From sequence record PP236086.1: a stretch of DNA of 64,000 nt; one strand, given 5' to 3'. Positions 3,347 to 41,953 of the stretch are shown here, in pieces. The stretch's first letter is position 1; every line of letters begins with the position of its first letter. Source of the stretch: Enterobacter phage ZX14. The position numbers were made by a program, and so were the translations under genes. The notes under the pieces were generated by a model that made no database searches, was not told the DNA's origin, and saw only the letters and a list, made by a program, of their open reading frames with translations.

Positions 3347-5028
3347 TATTCCATCACCGTGAAACGACCTACTTTCTTCATTTGAAGATGTTGGCCATAT
3401 GCCTGTGGGTCATGGTCTCTGTGACTGATAATGAAAATGTTCGTATCTTTAAGACTATTAAGAATCATACCAATAGTTTTAACACCGTCGGTATCAGTAG
3501 CCGAATCGAATACCTCATCAAGAATCAACGTGGATATATTAACACCACTTACCTGAGAAGCAATATCACGCCATGTAAACAACAGAGCGATATCGATACG
3601 AGCCTTTTCACCTTGGCTAAAGCTGAAATAGCTAAAGTCTTCACGACCACGAGATTTAATCGTTTCGTTAAATTCTTCATCTAAAGTGAATACATAATCG
3701 GCTTCCATGATTTTCAAGTAGTGGTTAATCTTCTTGTTAAACATTGGAATGTACTTCTTAATGATTGCACCTTTGATGCCAGAATCTTTCAACATCTCTG
3801 TCAAAATACCACGATGGTATTTTTCCATTACGAGCGTTGTTTTTTCTTTAACTAATTTATCAAGTTCTACTTGAAGCTTAGCAATCTCATCAGCATGGCT
3901 AATGAATTCTGCAGCAGCCTGGTCAATAAGAACTTTAACTTTCTTGGCCTTTTCTACAGCAGTGATTGCAGTAGATTTATGAGCCTGAATTTGGTTCTTG
4001 ATTTCACGAGCTTTACCTTGTTGAGCATGAACTTCATCTTGAATCAATTTCAGCTCACGATATTGTTCGTTTATTTTATCTAAAGATTTTTGAAGCTCAA
4101 AGTTTTTGTCTTTAATTTTAGTCAAGACATTACCATGTTCTTCAAGCCCCTGCATACATGTAGGACAATGCCCACCTGTCTCATAAAGCTTAACGACTTT
4201 ATCAAATGTCGCAATTTGATTCTTGATACTGAATCCTTCATTGCTCAGGTCACTCAGGCGAGCGCTAGGGTCATCATCGATGATAACGGCAAGTAAATCA
4301 TCAGTTAACTTTTCGATGTTCGCCTTGGCCGCCCTGGCTTCGCTTACTAAGTCATCGTACATTGTCTGCAGACGAGCAGCATTCTCACCAGATAATTTCT
4401 TCTGACGTTCTTCGTTGTCATTATAGATTTTAATCTGTTGAGTGATACCATCTTGCTTAACATCAATAACTTGGATTTGGCTATTAGTTTCACGAATCAA
4501 AGATTTGTTCAACTTATCCATTTCGGCCAGAATACTTACTTCGAGCAGATCCTCGACAAGTTTTCTTCGAGCGGGAGTTGACAATCCCATGAAAGGAGTA
4601 TATCCAGCCGTTCCGAGTACGACAACCTGTTTGAAGCTTGAATAAGACATTCCAATGAGCTGCTCAAACTGTTCTTGAAAGTCTTTGGCGGAGGCAGATT
4701 CGTCGAGAGGTTTACCGTTAACACTGATTTCGAAGACATTTGGTTTTTGTCCACGTTTGATGTAATATTCTTTTCCATCAAATTCCATCCAGAGTTCGAC
4801 CAAAAGGTCTTTCTTGTTAGAACTGTTTACGAGCTGGCCTTTCTTGACATCACGGAATGGTTTACCGAATAAAGCAAATGTAATTGCTTCAAGGAATGTT
4901 GACTTACCTGCGCCATTCTTACCAGTTACAAGAGTCTTTTGGACCTTATCAAGTTCAATAGTGATGGGCGCTGCGCCCACCGACATAATATTTTTATAGA
5001 TGACTTTCTTTAGCTTAAACGTTTTCAT
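3346..5028 (-). CDS. 46: Recombination endonuclease subunit gp46 (SbcC/Rad50-like ATPase)
   Basis: 560 aa, the T4 gp46 length. Has Walker A GKNGAGKST, a coiled-coil with CPTC zinc hook, and the C-terminal ...LILDEVFDS... D-loop. Confidence 0.92.
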   Translation of the reverse strand: MKTFKLKKVIYKNIMSVGAAPITIELDKVQKTLVTGKNGAGKSTFLEAITFALFGKPFRDVKKGQLVNSSNKKDLLVELWMEFDGKEYYIKRGQKPNVFEISVNGKPLDESASAKDFQEQFEQLIGMSYSSFKQVVVLGTAGYTPFMGLSTPARRKLVEDLLEVSILAEMDKLNKSLIRETNSQIQVIDVKQDGITQQIKIYNDNEERQKKLSGENAARLQTMYDDLVSEARAAKANIEKLTDDLLAVIIDDDPSARLSDLSNEGFSIKNQIATFDKVVKLYETGGHCPTCMQGLEEHGNVLTKIKDKNFELQKSLDKINEQYRELKLIQDEVHAQQGKAREIKNQIQAHKSTAITAVEKAKKVKVLIDQAAAEFISHADEIAKLQVELDKLVKEKTTLVMEKYHRGILTEMLKDSGIKGAIIKKYIPMFNKKINHYLKIMEADYVFTLDEEFNETIKSRGREDFSYFSFSQGEKARIDIALLFTWRDIASQVSGVNISTLILDEVFDSATDTDGVKTIGMILNSLKDTNIFIISHRDHDPQAYGQHLQMKKVGRFTVME

Positions 5029-5249
5029 GTATTGTTCCTTCGAATCTCTTGTTCAGCATATTCTAGCATTTCTTCGGAAGAATCAAATACACCGTCGAGT
5101 TCCATAGCCCATGAAACACCTTCAGAATATTCGGAGGTAACGTACATAGTTCCTGTATACCAAGAACCATCTACGTCCCATTCAATGTTACCAAACCAGC
5201 CATCACCAATATGGAAATCATGTTTATACATTTTCACTATACCATTCAT
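5025..5249 (-). CDS. Hypothetical protein (46.1 position)
   Basis: A 74 aa ORF between 46 and 47, matching the T4 46.1/46.2 arrangement. Confidence 0.5.
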   Translation of the reverse strand: MNGIVKMYKHDFHIGDGWFGNIEWDVDGSWYTGTMYVTSEYSEGVSWAMELDGVFDSSEEMLEYAEQEIRRNNT

Positions 5250-5481
5250 CCTTAATAAGAGTTTCGGCTAATTCTAATACGTAAGTAGGAGTATCATCCG
5301 GATATGCATTAAAACTAAACTCTACACCCATATCTGTAGTAACATGATAACCTTCGGCATTTAAATCATCATCGAATTTAGCACTGATATTATATTTGAT
5401 GTAAAAAGTACAGTCAAGATGTTCCACATAACAGACATGCTCTTCATGCATATAAGAGCCCATGAATACATCATATTTCAT
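5224..5481 (-). CDS. Hypothetical protein (46.2 position)
   Basis: An 85 aa ORF abutting the gene 47 stop. Confidence 0.5.
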   Translation of the reverse strand: MKYDVFMGSYMHEEHVCYVEHLDCTFYIKYNISAKFDDDLNAEGYHVTTDMGVEFSFNAYPDDTPTYVLELAETLIKDEWYSENV

Positions 5482-6497
5482 TTACTCACCTCAATATAAA
5501 GTTGTTTAGCTAATGACTTCAATGATTTACGGTCTTCATCAGAATGACCATCCGGAAGAGCGTCAATATAGTCTTCCATCAAATCAAGCAATGACTTGAT
5601 GTCGACTTCTTCATCACTATCATTATCTACACTGTCATCAACCTTCGAAACAATCCTAAGTGAATGAACTACTTTTTCGAGTTCACTTTCAAACTTAGGT
5701 AGTCCTTTATCAACTTGCTCAACAATGACACGAACTGCCAGATTTTTAAATTCGTCGTAATTGATTGTTTCGTTGGGATAACTAATCTTACGGTGCCATG
5801 TTGTAGAATTTGGGACGAAGTCAAACGTCGCTTTTTGAGTGTCCTGAACCCAGAATCCTCGAGGATCGTTTTCGTCGCCTGCTGTAAGCGTCCATGGTGT
5901 GCCGATGTATTTGACATTAGCTGCGCTAGAGATTGTGTGGAAATGGCCTGACCACACTTGTTTGTATTTTTTGAGGAAGTCTGGTTCGAGCCCATGAGAT
6001 TTCATTCCTTTATAGAAATAGAAGCCGTTAAGTTCCCAATGCCCAATACAATATTCAGCAGAACTTGTTTTGATATGTTCCATGATTTCAGTTGTGTTTT
6101 CGTCACACATCCATGGAATCAAATCAATCAACGTACCATCGAAATCCATTGAAACAGGTTTTTCGATAACGGTTACGTTCGAATATTTTCCAAGAACTTC
6201 TTGAGCCGCGTTAGGAGTCAATGTGTTCTTGTAGTGCATGTCGTGGTTACCAACAATGGTAATCAGATGAATACCTGCTTCAGCCAGCTCTTCAATAATC
6301 TGACGAGCGAATTCCATACACTTGTGTGTAATCGCTTTACGTACGTCGAAGATATCACCGTACTGAATAATAGTTTTGATATTGTGCTTTTTGGCATAAG
6401 CAATATGTTCACGAATACCCTTTAATTGAATTTCTTGAACCCAAGGGTCATCTGCTTTTACACCTAAGTGCCAATCACCGGAATGGATAATTTTCAT
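5478..6497 (-). CDS. 47: Recombination nuclease subunit gp47 (SbcD/Mre11-like)
   Basis: 339 aa, the T4 gp47 length. Carries phosphoesterase motifs GDWHLG, GDIFD, GNHD and GHFH. Confidence 0.92.
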   Translation of the reverse strand: MKIIHSGDWHLGVKADDPWVQEIQLKGIREHIAYAKKHNIKTIIQYGDIFDVRKAITHKCMEFARQIIEELAEAGIHLITIVGNHDMHYKNTLTPNAAQEVLGKYSNVTVIEKPVSMDFDGTLIDLIPWMCDENTTEIMEHIKTSSAEYCIGHWELNGFYFYKGMKSHGLEPDFLKKYKQVWSGHFHTISSAANVKYIGTPWTLTAGDENDPRGFWVQDTQKATFDFVPNSTTWHRKISYPNETINYDEFKNLAVRVIVEQVDKGLPKFESELEKVVHSLRIVSKVDDSVDNDSDEEVDIKSLLDLMEDYIDALPDGHSDEDRKSLKSLAKQLYIEVSK

Positions 6498-25283: not shown

Positions 25284-25862
25284 TCATACACCCACCAGTT
25301 CACACCAATGTTTTCTACACAGTGAGATATAACGGTCCTCACCACCCAATTCAACCTGAGCACCTTCAGTTACAGCAGAACCATCTTCTCTGACTCGTGC
25401 TACCATTGTAGCTTTACGTCCACAATGGCATACACCTTTGAGTTCGACTAATTTATCGGCTGCTGCAAGTAATGCTTTAGAACCTTCAAATAACTCACCA
25501 CGGAAATCAGTACGAAGCCCATAACACATTACAGGACAATTATACAAATCTACGATTTTGCATAACTGGAAAACCTGTTCAGATTCAAGGAACTGTGCTT
25601 CATCGACCATTACACAATGAATGTCACGTTGGACATGAGCCCATTTAAAGAACTCAAGCAAATCCATACCCGGGGTAATAATATTTGCTTCTTGTTTAAG
25701 GCCAATACGAGATACAATTTCAGTAGATGAATCTCTTGAATCAATCGAAGGTTTCATCACTAAAGTACCCATACCGCGTTCTTTATAGTTATTAGCATGT
25801 GAAAGCAAAGCCAGTGATTTACCGGCATTCATACTTGCATAATGAAAATAAAGTTGAGCCAT
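25284..25862 (-). CDS. tk: Thymidine kinase
   Basis: 192 aa: ...YASMNAGKS (P-loop)...VDEAQF...CHCGRKA...SLCRKHW, matching T4 Tk. Confidence 0.9.
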   Translation of the reverse strand: MAQLYFHYASMNAGKSLALLSHANNYKERGMGTLVMKPSIDSRDSSTEIVSRIGLKQEANIITPGMDLLEFFKWAHVQRDIHCVMVDEAQFLESEQVFQLCKIVDLYNCPVMCYGLRTDFRGELFEGSKALLAAADKLVELKGVCHCGRKATMVARVREDGSAVTEGAQVELGGEDRYISLCRKHWCELVGV

Positions 25863-25871
25863 TATAAATCC

Positions 25872-26057
25872 TTAAGCCATAATGCTTTCTAAATATTGTT
25901 CAAGTTGTTCACGAAGATTATCGACTTCTTGTTCATCTTCTTCTTTACTTGAACGAGATGCAGACCAATTGGATTCAGACCATGTTGCTGCGGCCTGAGC
26001 AATACGCATCTCATCGGCTAACCAGAAAATGTGTTCTTTCTGTTCTTTAGTAATCAT
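25872..26057 (-). CDS. Hypothetical protein
   Basis: 61 aa ORF. Confidence 0.35.
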   Translation of the reverse strand: MITKEQKEHIFWLADEMRIAQAAATWSESNWSASRSSKEEDEQEVDNLREQLEQYLESIMA

Positions 26058-26232
26058 ATTCTATACCATCCATAGCAAGAATGTGTTTACGTTGCTTTTC
26101 AAGAGCAGCTTCAGCTTCTTCAAAAAGTTTCTGAGGGCCTTCTAAGCGTTGGTACATTACTTCTTGAGCTAAGTTAATAAGCTTATCAATTTGCTCTACA
26201 ATATAGCACTGTTCTTCATCAGATATGGTCAT
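26047..26232 (-). CDS. Hypothetical protein
   Basis: 61 aa ORF. Confidence 0.35.
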   Translation of the reverse strand: MTISDEEQCYIVEQIDKLINLAQEVMYQRLEGPQKLFEEAEAALEKQRKHILAMDGIEYDY

Positions 26233-26438
26233 TTTGGTTCTCCTGGTTCTACCCAGTCTGGAGTGAATTGGAAGAATCCTTCACCGCCATGATTCTTACA
26301 AGTTTTATTAGAACAATATAACCACCAGTCCCACATTTTGTATGGTAGTGTATTCATCAACTCGTCATTGCACAATGAGAACACAATTGGCCATTTACAA
26401 TCCTTACAACGAGATTTTTCTTTAATATGTGTCTGCAT
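26229..26438 (-). CDS. Small Cys-rich protein
   Basis: A 69 aa ORF with CKDCKW...CSNKTCKNH. Confidence 0.4.
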   Translation of the reverse strand: MQTHIKEKSRCKDCKWPIVFSLCNDELMNTLPYKMWDWWLYCSNKTCKNHGGEGFFQFTPDWVEPGEPK

Positions 26439-26908
26439 CAGTTACCGTCCCAATCTACAATAATGATATTCAGATTAGGAGTGAACATATCGATTAAGAC
26501 CGATACCTTTTCCCAATCACCACCGGCTATACCACAACCAATACGTGGCATATAAACTAATGGAGGAACAATTTTATTAGAACCCCATTCATTTAATTCT
26601 ATCATACAGTTTACTAAAGCACCATAATCAAGATTTGGACCCGGCTCGTATTGTGTATAAAGGTTAAAGCAATATACTTCGTTATCACCTGGCCCATGAA
26701 TCTTAGTTGCCTTAGTATAAGTACCAAGCTTATAAGAGTCGCCAAGCAAAGTATCTGCTTTGTCGATGGCCAGAATAGGAGGATAATATTTTGCTAGTTG
26801 CCCTGCTACTCCAGCACCCATAGAATGGAAACAGTTACAGCCATGAGCAACGTTATGCCCAGACTTGAACAATTCCACGATATTACCGGTGATGTATTTG
26901 GTAATCAT
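26438..26908 (-). CDS. Macro domain protein, TARG1/OARD1 family (ADP-ribosyl hydrolase-like)
   Basis: 156 aa. GNIVELFKSGHNVAHGCNCFHSMGAGVA aligns with human OARD1 [27 protein letters not shown], and MPRIGCGIAGGDWEKVSVLIDMF with OARD1 [24 protein letters not shown]. Confidence 0.75.
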   Translation of the reverse strand: MITKYITGNIVELFKSGHNVAHGCNCFHSMGAGVAGQLAKYYPPILAIDKADTLLGDSYKLGTYTKATKIHGPGDNEVYCFNLYTQYEPGPNLDYGALVNCMIELNEWGSNKIVPPLVYMPRIGCGIAGGDWEKVSVLIDMFTPNLNIIIVDWDGN

Positions 26909-27273
26909 TTAGCGTTTAAACCTCTGTTATAAGCGTCGACTAATCGGTCGACCATAGACGTACACACGTCTTTAAATTGTGCATCGGATGGAATGCATTC
27001 TGTAGTCATTAATCGGTTTTCATATCTTTCAGACAAAGATTTCTCTCTGTATCGAGAACGGGCATCCATTTGCCCGTCTTTATATGAGCTCATAACCTGA
27101 TTACTGAATTCTAAAATACAATCCACATTTGATGGAGAACAATAATCTTTAGCTGTACGCTTTGCATAGTCCAATATATCTGTCATATTGGATTTAGTTA
27201 TTTCAATTTCAGAATTTGCTGATACTCCCACACTTAGTGTTAAACATACTGCCAAAGCTATTTGTTTTAACAT
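26905..27273 (-). CDS. Secreted protein
   Basis: A 122 aa ORF with a cleavable signal peptide (MLKQIALAVCLTLSVGVSANS). Confidence 0.5.
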   Translation of the reverse strand: MLKQIALAVCLTLSVGVSANSEIEITKSNMTDILDYAKRTAKDYCSPSNVDCILEFSNQVMSSYKDGQMDARSRYREKSLSERYENRLMTTECIPSDAQFKDVCTSMVDRLVDAYNRGLNAK

Positions 27274-27825
27274 TTAATCCACCGTTTGATGTAGCATCCT
27301 TTTGGATTTAAGGTAATTTGCCTTAGCAAGAACCTGCGATGCATACTTATTCCCAGCTTTTACATTATTGCCTGCATTGTAAGAAGCAATGGCTTTCCTC
27401 ATATCACCATTATGCCGTTCTAGCCAATAAGATAATTCAATATAAGCCCAGGACGCACTATTTTTGCGATCCTTAACCATTTTGATTATCTCTTTATCTG
27501 ACATCTTCCAACCCACCTGCGCCATCCTATTACGTAGAGTAGGCAAGTAATTTTGGAACATGCCGTAAGCATGATGCTTATGCTTTTCTTCACCTGTATT
27601 TAAGCCTGCAGAACTTTCCTGCCAAGCCAAACCAGCCATTATGTAACCTAAACCGTTATTATCATAACGCTTCGATGGTTCTTTGAACTTACCCGACTTT
27701 TGGAACTGTTCACCGAACGCGTAAGCGTACTGCAAATTGTCAAGTTGTTCATTACTGAAAGTAGGCTCTACGCTATGGGCAGACATACTAACTGTCAATA
27801 GTAAAGTTGCTAATACTTTTTTCAT
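27274..27825 (-). CDS. Secreted lytic transglycosylase (SLT family 1)-like
   Basis: A 183 aa ORF with signal peptide MKKVLATLLLTVSMSAHS and SLT motifs QESS...AYGMFQ...SYNAGNNV. Confidence 0.65.
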   Translation of the reverse strand: MKKVLATLLLTVSMSAHSVEPTFSNEQLDNLQYAYAFGEQFQKSGKFKEPSKRYDNNGLGYIMAGLAWQESSAGLNTGEEKHKHHAYGMFQNYLPTLRNRMAQVGWKMSDKEIIKMVKDRKNSASWAYIELSYWLERHNGDMRKAIASYNAGNNVKAGNKYASQVLAKANYLKSKRMLHQTVD

Positions 27826-27835
27826 GAATTCTCTC

Positions 27836-28294
27836 TTAGATTAAATCAATAACTTTTGTGCTAGTTTTTCCTTCAAGACGACGATTGTTGATGAAAGCCA
27901 TACGACAGCACAGAGATGGCATTTTGCCTGGCTGAGGACGGTCTACGGTCATACCTAACCACAGATTGCGGTCAGTGATTTCAAGACGAAGAGGGCGATA
28001 ATTGATACCAGGTTCTTTGTCTTCTTCAACATCAGGTAATGCCGGCATGTTAAGAAATTCTACAACTTCTTTAACATGATTATGAAGACGTTTGAATAGT
28101 GCAAAGACGTACTGCTCGTCAATTTCACGTTGAATAGCACGGTCCAAGAGGTGAGGGCTGTACTTAACGAAGAAGCGTTTTACGCCGGCTTCAGTACAGG
28201 ACGAGGCAATAGATTTGTTGATTTCGGCGAACTCAGTTTCGAAGATACGACGAAGTTTGTTGCGGCGAATGTAAACGCTTGAATCAATAGACAT
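27836..28294 (-). CDS. regB: Endoribonuclease RegB
   Basis: 152 aa (T4 RegB is 153 aa); ...VYIRRNKLRR...LLDRAIQREIDEQYVF... The genomic position matches; identity is recalled from memory. Confidence 0.6.
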   Translation of the reverse strand: MSIDSSVYIRRNKLRRIFETEFAEINKSIASSCTEAGVKRFFVKYSPHLLDRAIQREIDEQYVFALFKRLHNHVKEVVEFLNMPALPDVEEDKEPGINYRPLRLEITDRNLWLGMTVDRPQPGKMPSLCCRMAFINNRRLEGKTSTKVIDLI

Positions 28295-28300
28295 TTTGAT

Positions 28301-28351
28301 CTCCTTTTAGTGTGTAAGATGATAATAACACAACTAAAAGGAGATGTAAAC
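28301..28351 (-). promoter_or_regulatory. PeSL-like early promoter upstream of regB (ctccttttag...ctaaaaggag + GTTTACA)
   Basis: tgtaaac at 28345-28351. Confidence 0.55.
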
Positions 28352-41857: not shown

Positions 41858-41953
41858 TTTAACTGGCGGTTAGTGCAGGTATCGATACCTGCCTTGTCCT
41901 AAGACACGGATTAACAGTCCGTCGCTTCCCCTCTCAGCCAACTAACCGGAATT

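Follow-up and report, generated by a model that had tools for sequence, protein, structure and literature searches.

A T4 Tk.4-type macrodomain in Enterobacter phage ZX14, a probable lysine-independent counter-defence against DarTG2

A relative of the gene considered here is tk.4 of phage T4. In a transposon library of T4 on a DarTG2-expressing host, tk.4 was the single significant hit, with depleted insertions, and a clean tk.4 knockout was sensitised specifically on the DarTG2 host. T4 can do without the gene on plain E. coli K-12, and the authors of this HIDEN-SEQ study renamed it adfM, for anti-DarT factor Macrodomain (bioRxiv 10.1101/2025.11.20.689424). A complementary factor, AdfN (T4 30.3), is a NADAR enzyme that reverses the guanine modification made by DarT1 (PMC11825919). 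Here we analyse the corresponding adfM gene of Enterobacter phage ZX14 (PP236086.1), which occupies positions 26438..26908 on the minus strand and encodes a 156-residue stand-alone macrodomain protein. All positions refer to the 64,000-nt stretch that was analysed, hereafter the window.

Biochemical precedent comes from more distant macrodomains. PhiKZ gp104, a chimallivirus protein also named AdfM, removes ADP-ribose from thymidine-ADP-ribose (T-ADPr) oligonucleotides in vitro and protects against DarTG2; its N23A variant has reduced activity, and PhiKZ-type AdfM is imported into the phage nucleus (PMC13309987). The name AdfM now covers two macrodomain subfamilies, the PhiKZ gp104 type and the T4 Tk.4 type. 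Although SCO6735 of Streptomyces coelicolor has neither the Lys nor the Asp, it acts on thymidine-ADPr DNA more efficiently than the two other enzymes compared, and it relieves the toxicity of DarT. Hydrolysis of this DNA is abolished in SCO6735 by Q85A and Q85E and reduced or lost with N27S, and the authors propose a water-mediated mechanism with Gln85 positioning the distal ribose (PMC9411070).

On the basis of protein similarity and gene order, we assign the window gene as the Kanagawavirus (T-even-like) ortholog of T4 tk.4. The encoded protein is 55% identical to T4 Tk.4 (NP_049723; T4 locus 4923..5390, minus strand) over 154 residues (E 2e-67), with lengths of 156 and 155 residues, respectively, and it matches PHROG 335 with an E value of 6e-59. 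The T4 gene order is tk, tk.1, tk.2, tk.3, tk.4, vs, vs.1, regB, and the same order of tk.3, tk.4, vs, vs.1 and regB is found in the window. Both proteins possess the invariant H-G-C-N-C and N-x-Y-T-Q motifs and share the place between tk.3 and vs, whereas the phages differ in genus and host: T4 is a Tequatrovirus of E. coli, and the window derives from a Kanagawavirus of Enterobacter/Kosakonia. The segment is 98% nucleotide-identical to Enterobacter phage vB_EclM_Q7622, and Kosakonia phage 305 (GenBank MZ348423, Kanagawavirus, Tevenvirinae) encodes a 100% identical protein labelled "protein with Macro domain, T4-like". The family is therefore already known, from that label, from the T4 RefSeq entry for tk.4 ("phosphatase; contains A1pp phosphatase motif") and from the published anti-DarTG2 role.

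Of 50,697 phage records searched with tblastn, 2,714, from many host genera, encode a homolog; its labels include phosphatase, macro domain protein, Poa1p-like and O-acetyl-ADP-ribose deacetylase. DarG-like macrodomains of the Lys type occur in about 290 phage records, mostly of jumbo phages, or roughly one tenth of the number for the Tk.4 type (~2,700 records); no other phage macrodomain is nearly as common as the Tk.4/AdfM family. Three homologs (P0076, P0096 and P0116) are ~246 residues long, approximately 90 residues more than most. Precomputed Pfam assignments for P0076 list PF22327 together with PF00293 (NUDIX), which suggests occasional fusion of a Tk.4-type macrodomain to an ADP-ribose pyrophosphatase-type domain.

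The window protein is a macrodomain of the ALC1/TARG1-like class. As a single sequence it reached 23.1 bits against Pfam Macro (PF01661), narrowly above the cutoff (22), in a match that spans profile positions 2-115 of 118. A family profile made from a 47-sequence alignment and searched against PDB sequences retrieved BT1257 (3.7e-20), SCO6735 (8.9e-17), TARG1 (5e-16), Poa1p (8.7e-14) and DarG (2.4e-11). An AlphaFold2 model computed from the family alignment had a predicted local distance difference test score (pLDDT) of 94.4 and a predicted template modelling score (pTM) of 0.90. Foldseek placed TARG1 (4j5r_B, E 6e-10, template modelling scores 0.76/0.84) and Poa1p at the top for this model, with fold matches also to BT1257 and DarG. 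The model displays the three-layer alpha/beta/alpha fold and the loops of an ADP-ribose cleft, comprising a GxG loop 1 and a glycine-rich loop 2, and lies nearer to TARG1, DarG, Poa1p, BT1257 and SCO6735 than to MacroD, PARG or macroH2A. A sequence-only reading of this DNA had proposed a TARG1/OARD1-type macro domain from two peptide segments aligned with human OARD1/TARG1. Both segments are present and align as described in the profile-to-PDB alignment, and Pfam Macro, the profile search against PDB and Foldseek on the AlphaFold2 model agree on the class.

The active site was mapped by hmmalign of TARG1, two PDB-verified DarG macrodomains, SCO6735, BT1257 and T4 Tk.4 to the family hidden Markov model (HMM), an alignment that reproduces the published residue numbers, and columns were tallied over 120 database homologs. 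Loop 1 of the ADP-ribose pocket (residues 21-35, AHGCNCFHSMGAGVA; 26804..26848, minus strand) holds the invariant residues H22, G23, N25 and C26 and the GxG motif. The invariant N-x-Y-T-Q motif lies in residues 82-90 (NLYTQYEPG; 26639..26665, minus strand) and includes Gln86, and the glycine-rich, diphosphate-binding loop 2 (residues 121-132, PRIGCGIAGGDW; 26513..26548, minus strand) includes Ala128. In the hmmalign mapping, Gln86 takes the place of TARG1 K84, DarG K80, SCO6735 Q85 and the Gln of BT1257, and in the alignments Ala128 corresponds to TARG1 D125 and Poa1p F152. Asn25 is equivalent to TARG1 S35, DarG N22, SCO6735 N27 and PhiKZ AdfM N23, and H22 to TARG1 H32 and Poa1p H23. Q86 is found in all 119 homologs aligned at its column, with Lys there in none, while N25 and H22 are each present in 118 of 118. 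Position 128 is Ala in 113 of 120 homologs and Gly in 5 of 120, and is never Asp.

We therefore ruled out TARG1-type catalysis, for which hmmalign and the tally over 120 homologs reveal no Lys/Asp dyad. Without Lys86 and Asp128, neither the Lys-Schiff-base chemistry of TARG1 nor the Lys80-dependent chemistry of DarG can apply. The sequence-only reading had pointed to TARG1 K84/D125 as catalytic residues to look for; the family carries Gln86 and Ala128 at these places throughout, and the protein is not mechanistically of the TARG1 type. As judged from the alignment, the active site resembles the Gln type of SCO6735 and BT1257 rather than the Lys/Asp type of TARG1: Q86 and N25 align to SCO6735 Q85 and N27, and both are invariant in the family, whose chemistry is thus probably Lys-independent. 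That precisely this pair never varies is the strongest argument at present for an active, Lys-independent phage hydrolase.

We consider it likely that adfM encodes a macrodomain ADP-ribosylglycohydrolase that serves as an orphan-antitoxin-like counter-defence against DarTG2. For the window protein itself, we infer enzymatic activity on T-ADPr DNA, a Gln-type mechanism and early expression. In the proposed sequence of events, host DarT2 would ADP-ribosylate thymidines in single-stranded phage DNA on infection, blocking replication. The macrodomain, probably an early product of the regB-tk transcription unit, would bind the ADP-ribose in the cleft that loop 1 (H22-G-C-N25-C...G31-A-G33) forms with loop 2 (G124-C-G-I-A-G-G130), and hydrolyse the thymine-ribose bond, releasing ADP-ribose and rendering the DNA replicable again. 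Catalysis would likely be Lys-independent, as in SCO6735, with Gln86, held by Asn25, positioning the distal ribose and transition state, and an activated water would perform the chemistry. The protein consists of the macrodomain alone, at 156 residues and with no C-terminal DarT-binding domain, and this favours reversal by an enzyme over sequestration of the toxin. The anti-DarT role that had been guessed for this gene is borne out by the genetics of its T4 ortholog, Tk.4/AdfM, through both the depleted insertions and the sensitised knockout on the DarTG2 host; reading the sequence alone had correctly predicted an anti-defence function that matches the 2025 T4 tk.4 transposon screen.

Several observations weigh against this assignment. 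The removal of ADP-ribose from DNA by T4 Tk.4 is an inference of the HIDEN-SEQ authors (bioRxiv 10.1101/2025.11.20.689424). The genetic evidence was obtained with T4 on E. coli and would extend to the window phage and its Enterobacter/Kosakonia hosts by analogy, and the window protein, 55% identical to T4 Tk.4, could prefer a different substrate. Moreover, T4 Tk.4, the only genetically tested member, has an atypical diphosphate-binding loop 2, GAGIGKGNW; the window protein has the family consensus GCGIAGGDW, which is kept by ~95% of homologs. DarG and TARG1 depend on a catalytic Lys (K80 and K84, respectively) that is missing here, and the resemblance to SCO6735 is incomplete: its Val25, described as specific to the SCO6735 subfamily, corresponds to the invariant Gly23 of the phage family, its DNA-contacting Lys34 to Ala32, and its longer mobile loop with Lys89 has no counterpart in the window protein. 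We had also considered acidic net charge as an argument against a DNA substrate, and dropped it because PhiKZ-type AdfM, which is active on single-stranded DNA in vitro, is equally acidic (isoelectric point, pI, 5.05 versus 5.19 for the window protein).

How far the substrate range might extend is a separate matter. We regard as a minority view, although one worth stating, that the Tk.4/AdfM family is a mechanistically distinct, Lys-independent 'H-G-C-N-C / N-x-Y-T-Q' broad-spectrum ADP-ribosylation eraser whose substrates reach beyond DarT2-modified thymidine to nucleic-acid or protein marks of unrecognised defence or competitor toxins. Broad-spectrum erasure, if true, would explain why phages infecting so many host genera have almost universally kept the gene.

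Somewhat less probable is that ADP-ribose is removed from proteins or RNA, instead of or besides DNA, with host-defence marks, Alt/ModA/ModB marks or RNAylation as the targets. T-even phages do encode ADP-ribosyltransferases, TARG1 acts on both substrate types, and the spread over ~2,700 phage records is wider than expected of a counter-defence against a single system. Alt and the Mod enzymes modify arginine, however, and no cleavage of Arg-ADPr is known for ALC1/TARG1-class macrodomains. Erasure of the phage's own Alt/ModA/ModB marks is therefore unlikely, and the earlier suggestion that the gene regulates the phage's own ADP-ribosylation found no support. SCO6735, which has the same Gln and Asn in its active site, removes ADP-ribose from proteins as well (PMC9411070). 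On ADP-ribosylated RNA phosphate ends its source paper is inconsistent: SCO6735 is described as inactive on 5′-phosphate ADPr RNA and DNA in the Results, but as active on RNA phosphate ends in the Discussion; 2′-OH RNA ADP-ribosylation is not hydrolysed by SCO6735. T-even phages are reported to stay robustly sensitive to CmdTAC, an mRNA ADP-ribosyltransferase system (PMC11618068), so the macrodomain does not neutralise CmdTAC. The dispensability of T4 tk.4 on plain E. coli K-12 likewise counts against this reading.

Housekeeping of small-molecule NAD metabolites, as an ADP-ribose-1''-phosphate phosphatase or O-acetyl-ADP-ribose deacetylase like Poa1p, is the activity implied by the historical 'phosphatase / A1pp' label, and we judge it less likely again. 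The phosphatase and deacetylase names stem from domain-level homology to Poa1p and never from assays. Yeast Poa1p (6lfq-6lfu) is ~20 residues longer than the window protein and has insertions, and of the positions mutated in its PDB entries only H23 is kept (H22): S30 falls on a variable position and F152 is replaced by Ala128, so neither is retained. The T4 ortholog's sole known phenotype is DarTG2-specific. T4-type tRNA repair, carried out by Pnkp and Rnl1, is not known to involve a 2′-phosphotransferase step that would make Appr>p, which also counts against a Poa1p-like role. The window protein may have a side activity on small molecules, but ~2,700 phage genes probably bear a misleading label such as 'phosphatase' or 'O-acetyl-ADP-ribose deacetylase'. 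That the protein is a non-catalytic binder, acting as a sponge for ADP-ribose-derived immune signals or by occlusion of DarT, is very improbable, as the invariant N25 and Q86 are the residues needed for catalysis in the Lys-less SCO6735, no additional domain like the DarT-binding domain of DarG is present, and the nearest structural relatives are all hydrolases.

The genomic setting of adfM is consistent with expression as part of a larger unit. On the minus strand, 26438..26908 is an ATG-started open reading frame (ORF) of 156 codons, and the plus-strand frame is riddled with stops. As read directly from the sequence, adfM overlaps both neighbours, its start with the stop codon of the vs homolog (ATGA) and its stop with the start codon of the tk.3-like gene (TGATG), and adfM is therefore part of a tightly packed co-directional gene block. 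All of the following genes are likewise on the minus strand. Directly upstream lies the vs homolog (26905..27273; 122 residues; PHROG 1256/38498 'valyl tRNA synthetase modifier'; 41% identity to T4 Vs, T4 locus 5387..5734, minus strand), preceded by a vs.1 homolog (27274..27825; 183 residues; 62% identity to T4 Vs.1) with an SLT domain (Pfam SLT 22.0 bits, cutoff 21.3) and a signal-like N-terminus. The regB endoribonuclease gene (27836..28294; Pfam REGB_T4 E 1e-72) is the first gene of the likely transcription unit. On the other side of adfM is the tk.3-like gene for a 69-residue phage zinc-binding protein (26229..26438; Pfam PF23895 E 5e-35), and thymidine kinase (tk, 25284..25862; Pfam TK E 2.9e-54) forms the downstream end of the block. 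These Pfam-identified flanks confirm the placement of the macro gene in the tk-regB interval by the sequence-only reading, and the "SLT-like enzyme" and "secreted 122-aa protein" it had noted nearby are the Vs.1 and Vs homologs, both with signal-like N-termini.

A consensus scan identified a sigma-70-like promoter candidate upstream of regB (28322..28350, minus strand), with TTTACA-17-TATTAT, an extended TG and 10 of 12 matches. Promoter-like sites in the region are no more numerous than in shuffled sequence, and this site is for that reason a candidate only; it is a possible early promoter for regB-vs.1-vs-adfM-...-tk. The promoter and terminator scan of the minus strand from regB to adfM found a sole terminator-like site, which is weak and lies inside regB (28186..28174). 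Together, the stop/start overlaps, the promoter candidate and the weakness of the terminator-like site suggest that regB through tk may be co-transcribed.

The neighbouring genes merit comment in their own right. The N-terminus of the Vs homolog is hydrophobic and resembles a signal peptide, and the protein shares four invariant cysteines (C45, C52, C93 and C104) with T4 Vs. These are features of an exported, disulfide-bonded protein and are odd for a supposed binder of a cytoplasmic aminoacyl-tRNA synthetase. T4 Vs and Vs.1 also keep signal-like N-termini, as their window homologs do, and in the HIDEN-SEQ study no T4 gene showed stronger conditional essentiality in minimal medium than vs (bioRxiv 10.1101/2025.11.20.689424). 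T4 Vs.1 is labelled only as hypothetical in the T4 record; the window homolog lies just above the Pfam SLT threshold. Between the macro gene and tk, the window contains three small ORFs in the positions of tk.1, tk.2 and tk.3 (25872..26438, minus strand), including that for the PF23895 zinc-binding protein; in Kosakonia phage 305 these three are missing, and the identical macro gene directly adjoins tk. Elsewhere in the window, the tRNA cluster at 41.3-43.5 kb includes an eighth tRNA called by Rfam (41867..41947, minus strand; 81 nt, 42.4 bits). It is not among the seven tRNAs that ARAGORN lists, which are those for Met, His, Gln, Lys, Arg, Met and Leu.

Comparison with the characterised enzymes clarifies how the window protein relates to each. 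Membership in DarG, the DarTG2 antitoxin, was rejected on the grounds that its models score far below threshold and that the C-terminal domain and Lys80 are absent. With the NCBIfam DarG equivalog NF048014, whose cutoff is 250 bits, the protein reached 15.3 bits, PADLOC DarG gave an E value of 1.2e-3 over profile positions 4-138 of 329, and overall the DarG models match only profile positions ~1-146 of 329-338. DarG structures (5m3i, 5m31/5m3e, 7omu) carry F-P-T-K with the catalytic Lys80, in contrast to Y-T-Q with Gln86 in the window protein. There is no darT beside adfM, whose neighbours are vs, vs.1, regB, the tk.3-like gene and tk, and no ADP-ribosyltransferase among the seven proteins scanned. 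Human TARG1/OARD1 (4j5r, 2lgr) is ~21% identical to the window protein, with its K84/D125 dyad replaced by Q86/A128 and S35 by N25.

PhiKZ-type AdfM, compared here through the protein of the PhiKZ-like Pseudomonas phage vB_PA32_GUMS (589..1080, plus strand), is likewise phage-encoded, stand-alone and acidic, and its loop 1 also reads GAG, not GKG. It retains the DarG-type F-P-T-K lysine (K78), which the window protein lacks. The two are ~19% identical by hhalign (probability 96%), and BLASTP between them gave no significant full-length match. We accordingly rejected placement in the same subfamily as PhiKZ AdfM, a distant relative of the Lys type.

Streptomyces coelicolor SCO6735 (5e3b) and Bacteroides BT1257 (2fg1/2afc) are cellular proteins with ~24-26% identity to the phage-encoded window protein. 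SCO6735 is strongly basic, with a pI of 9.69 against 5.19 for the window protein and a family median of 5.8, and several SCO6735 features are not found in the window protein: Val/Ile25, described as SCO6735-specific, Lys34 and Lys89, which contact DNA, the extended mobile loop and an electropositive surface. Taken strictly, the window protein is in none of the characterised SCO6735, DarG and PhiKZ-AdfM subfamilies. Overall, the T-even AdfM family lacks the catalytic Lys found in DarG and TARG1 and carries the Asn/Gln pair on which SCO6735 depends.

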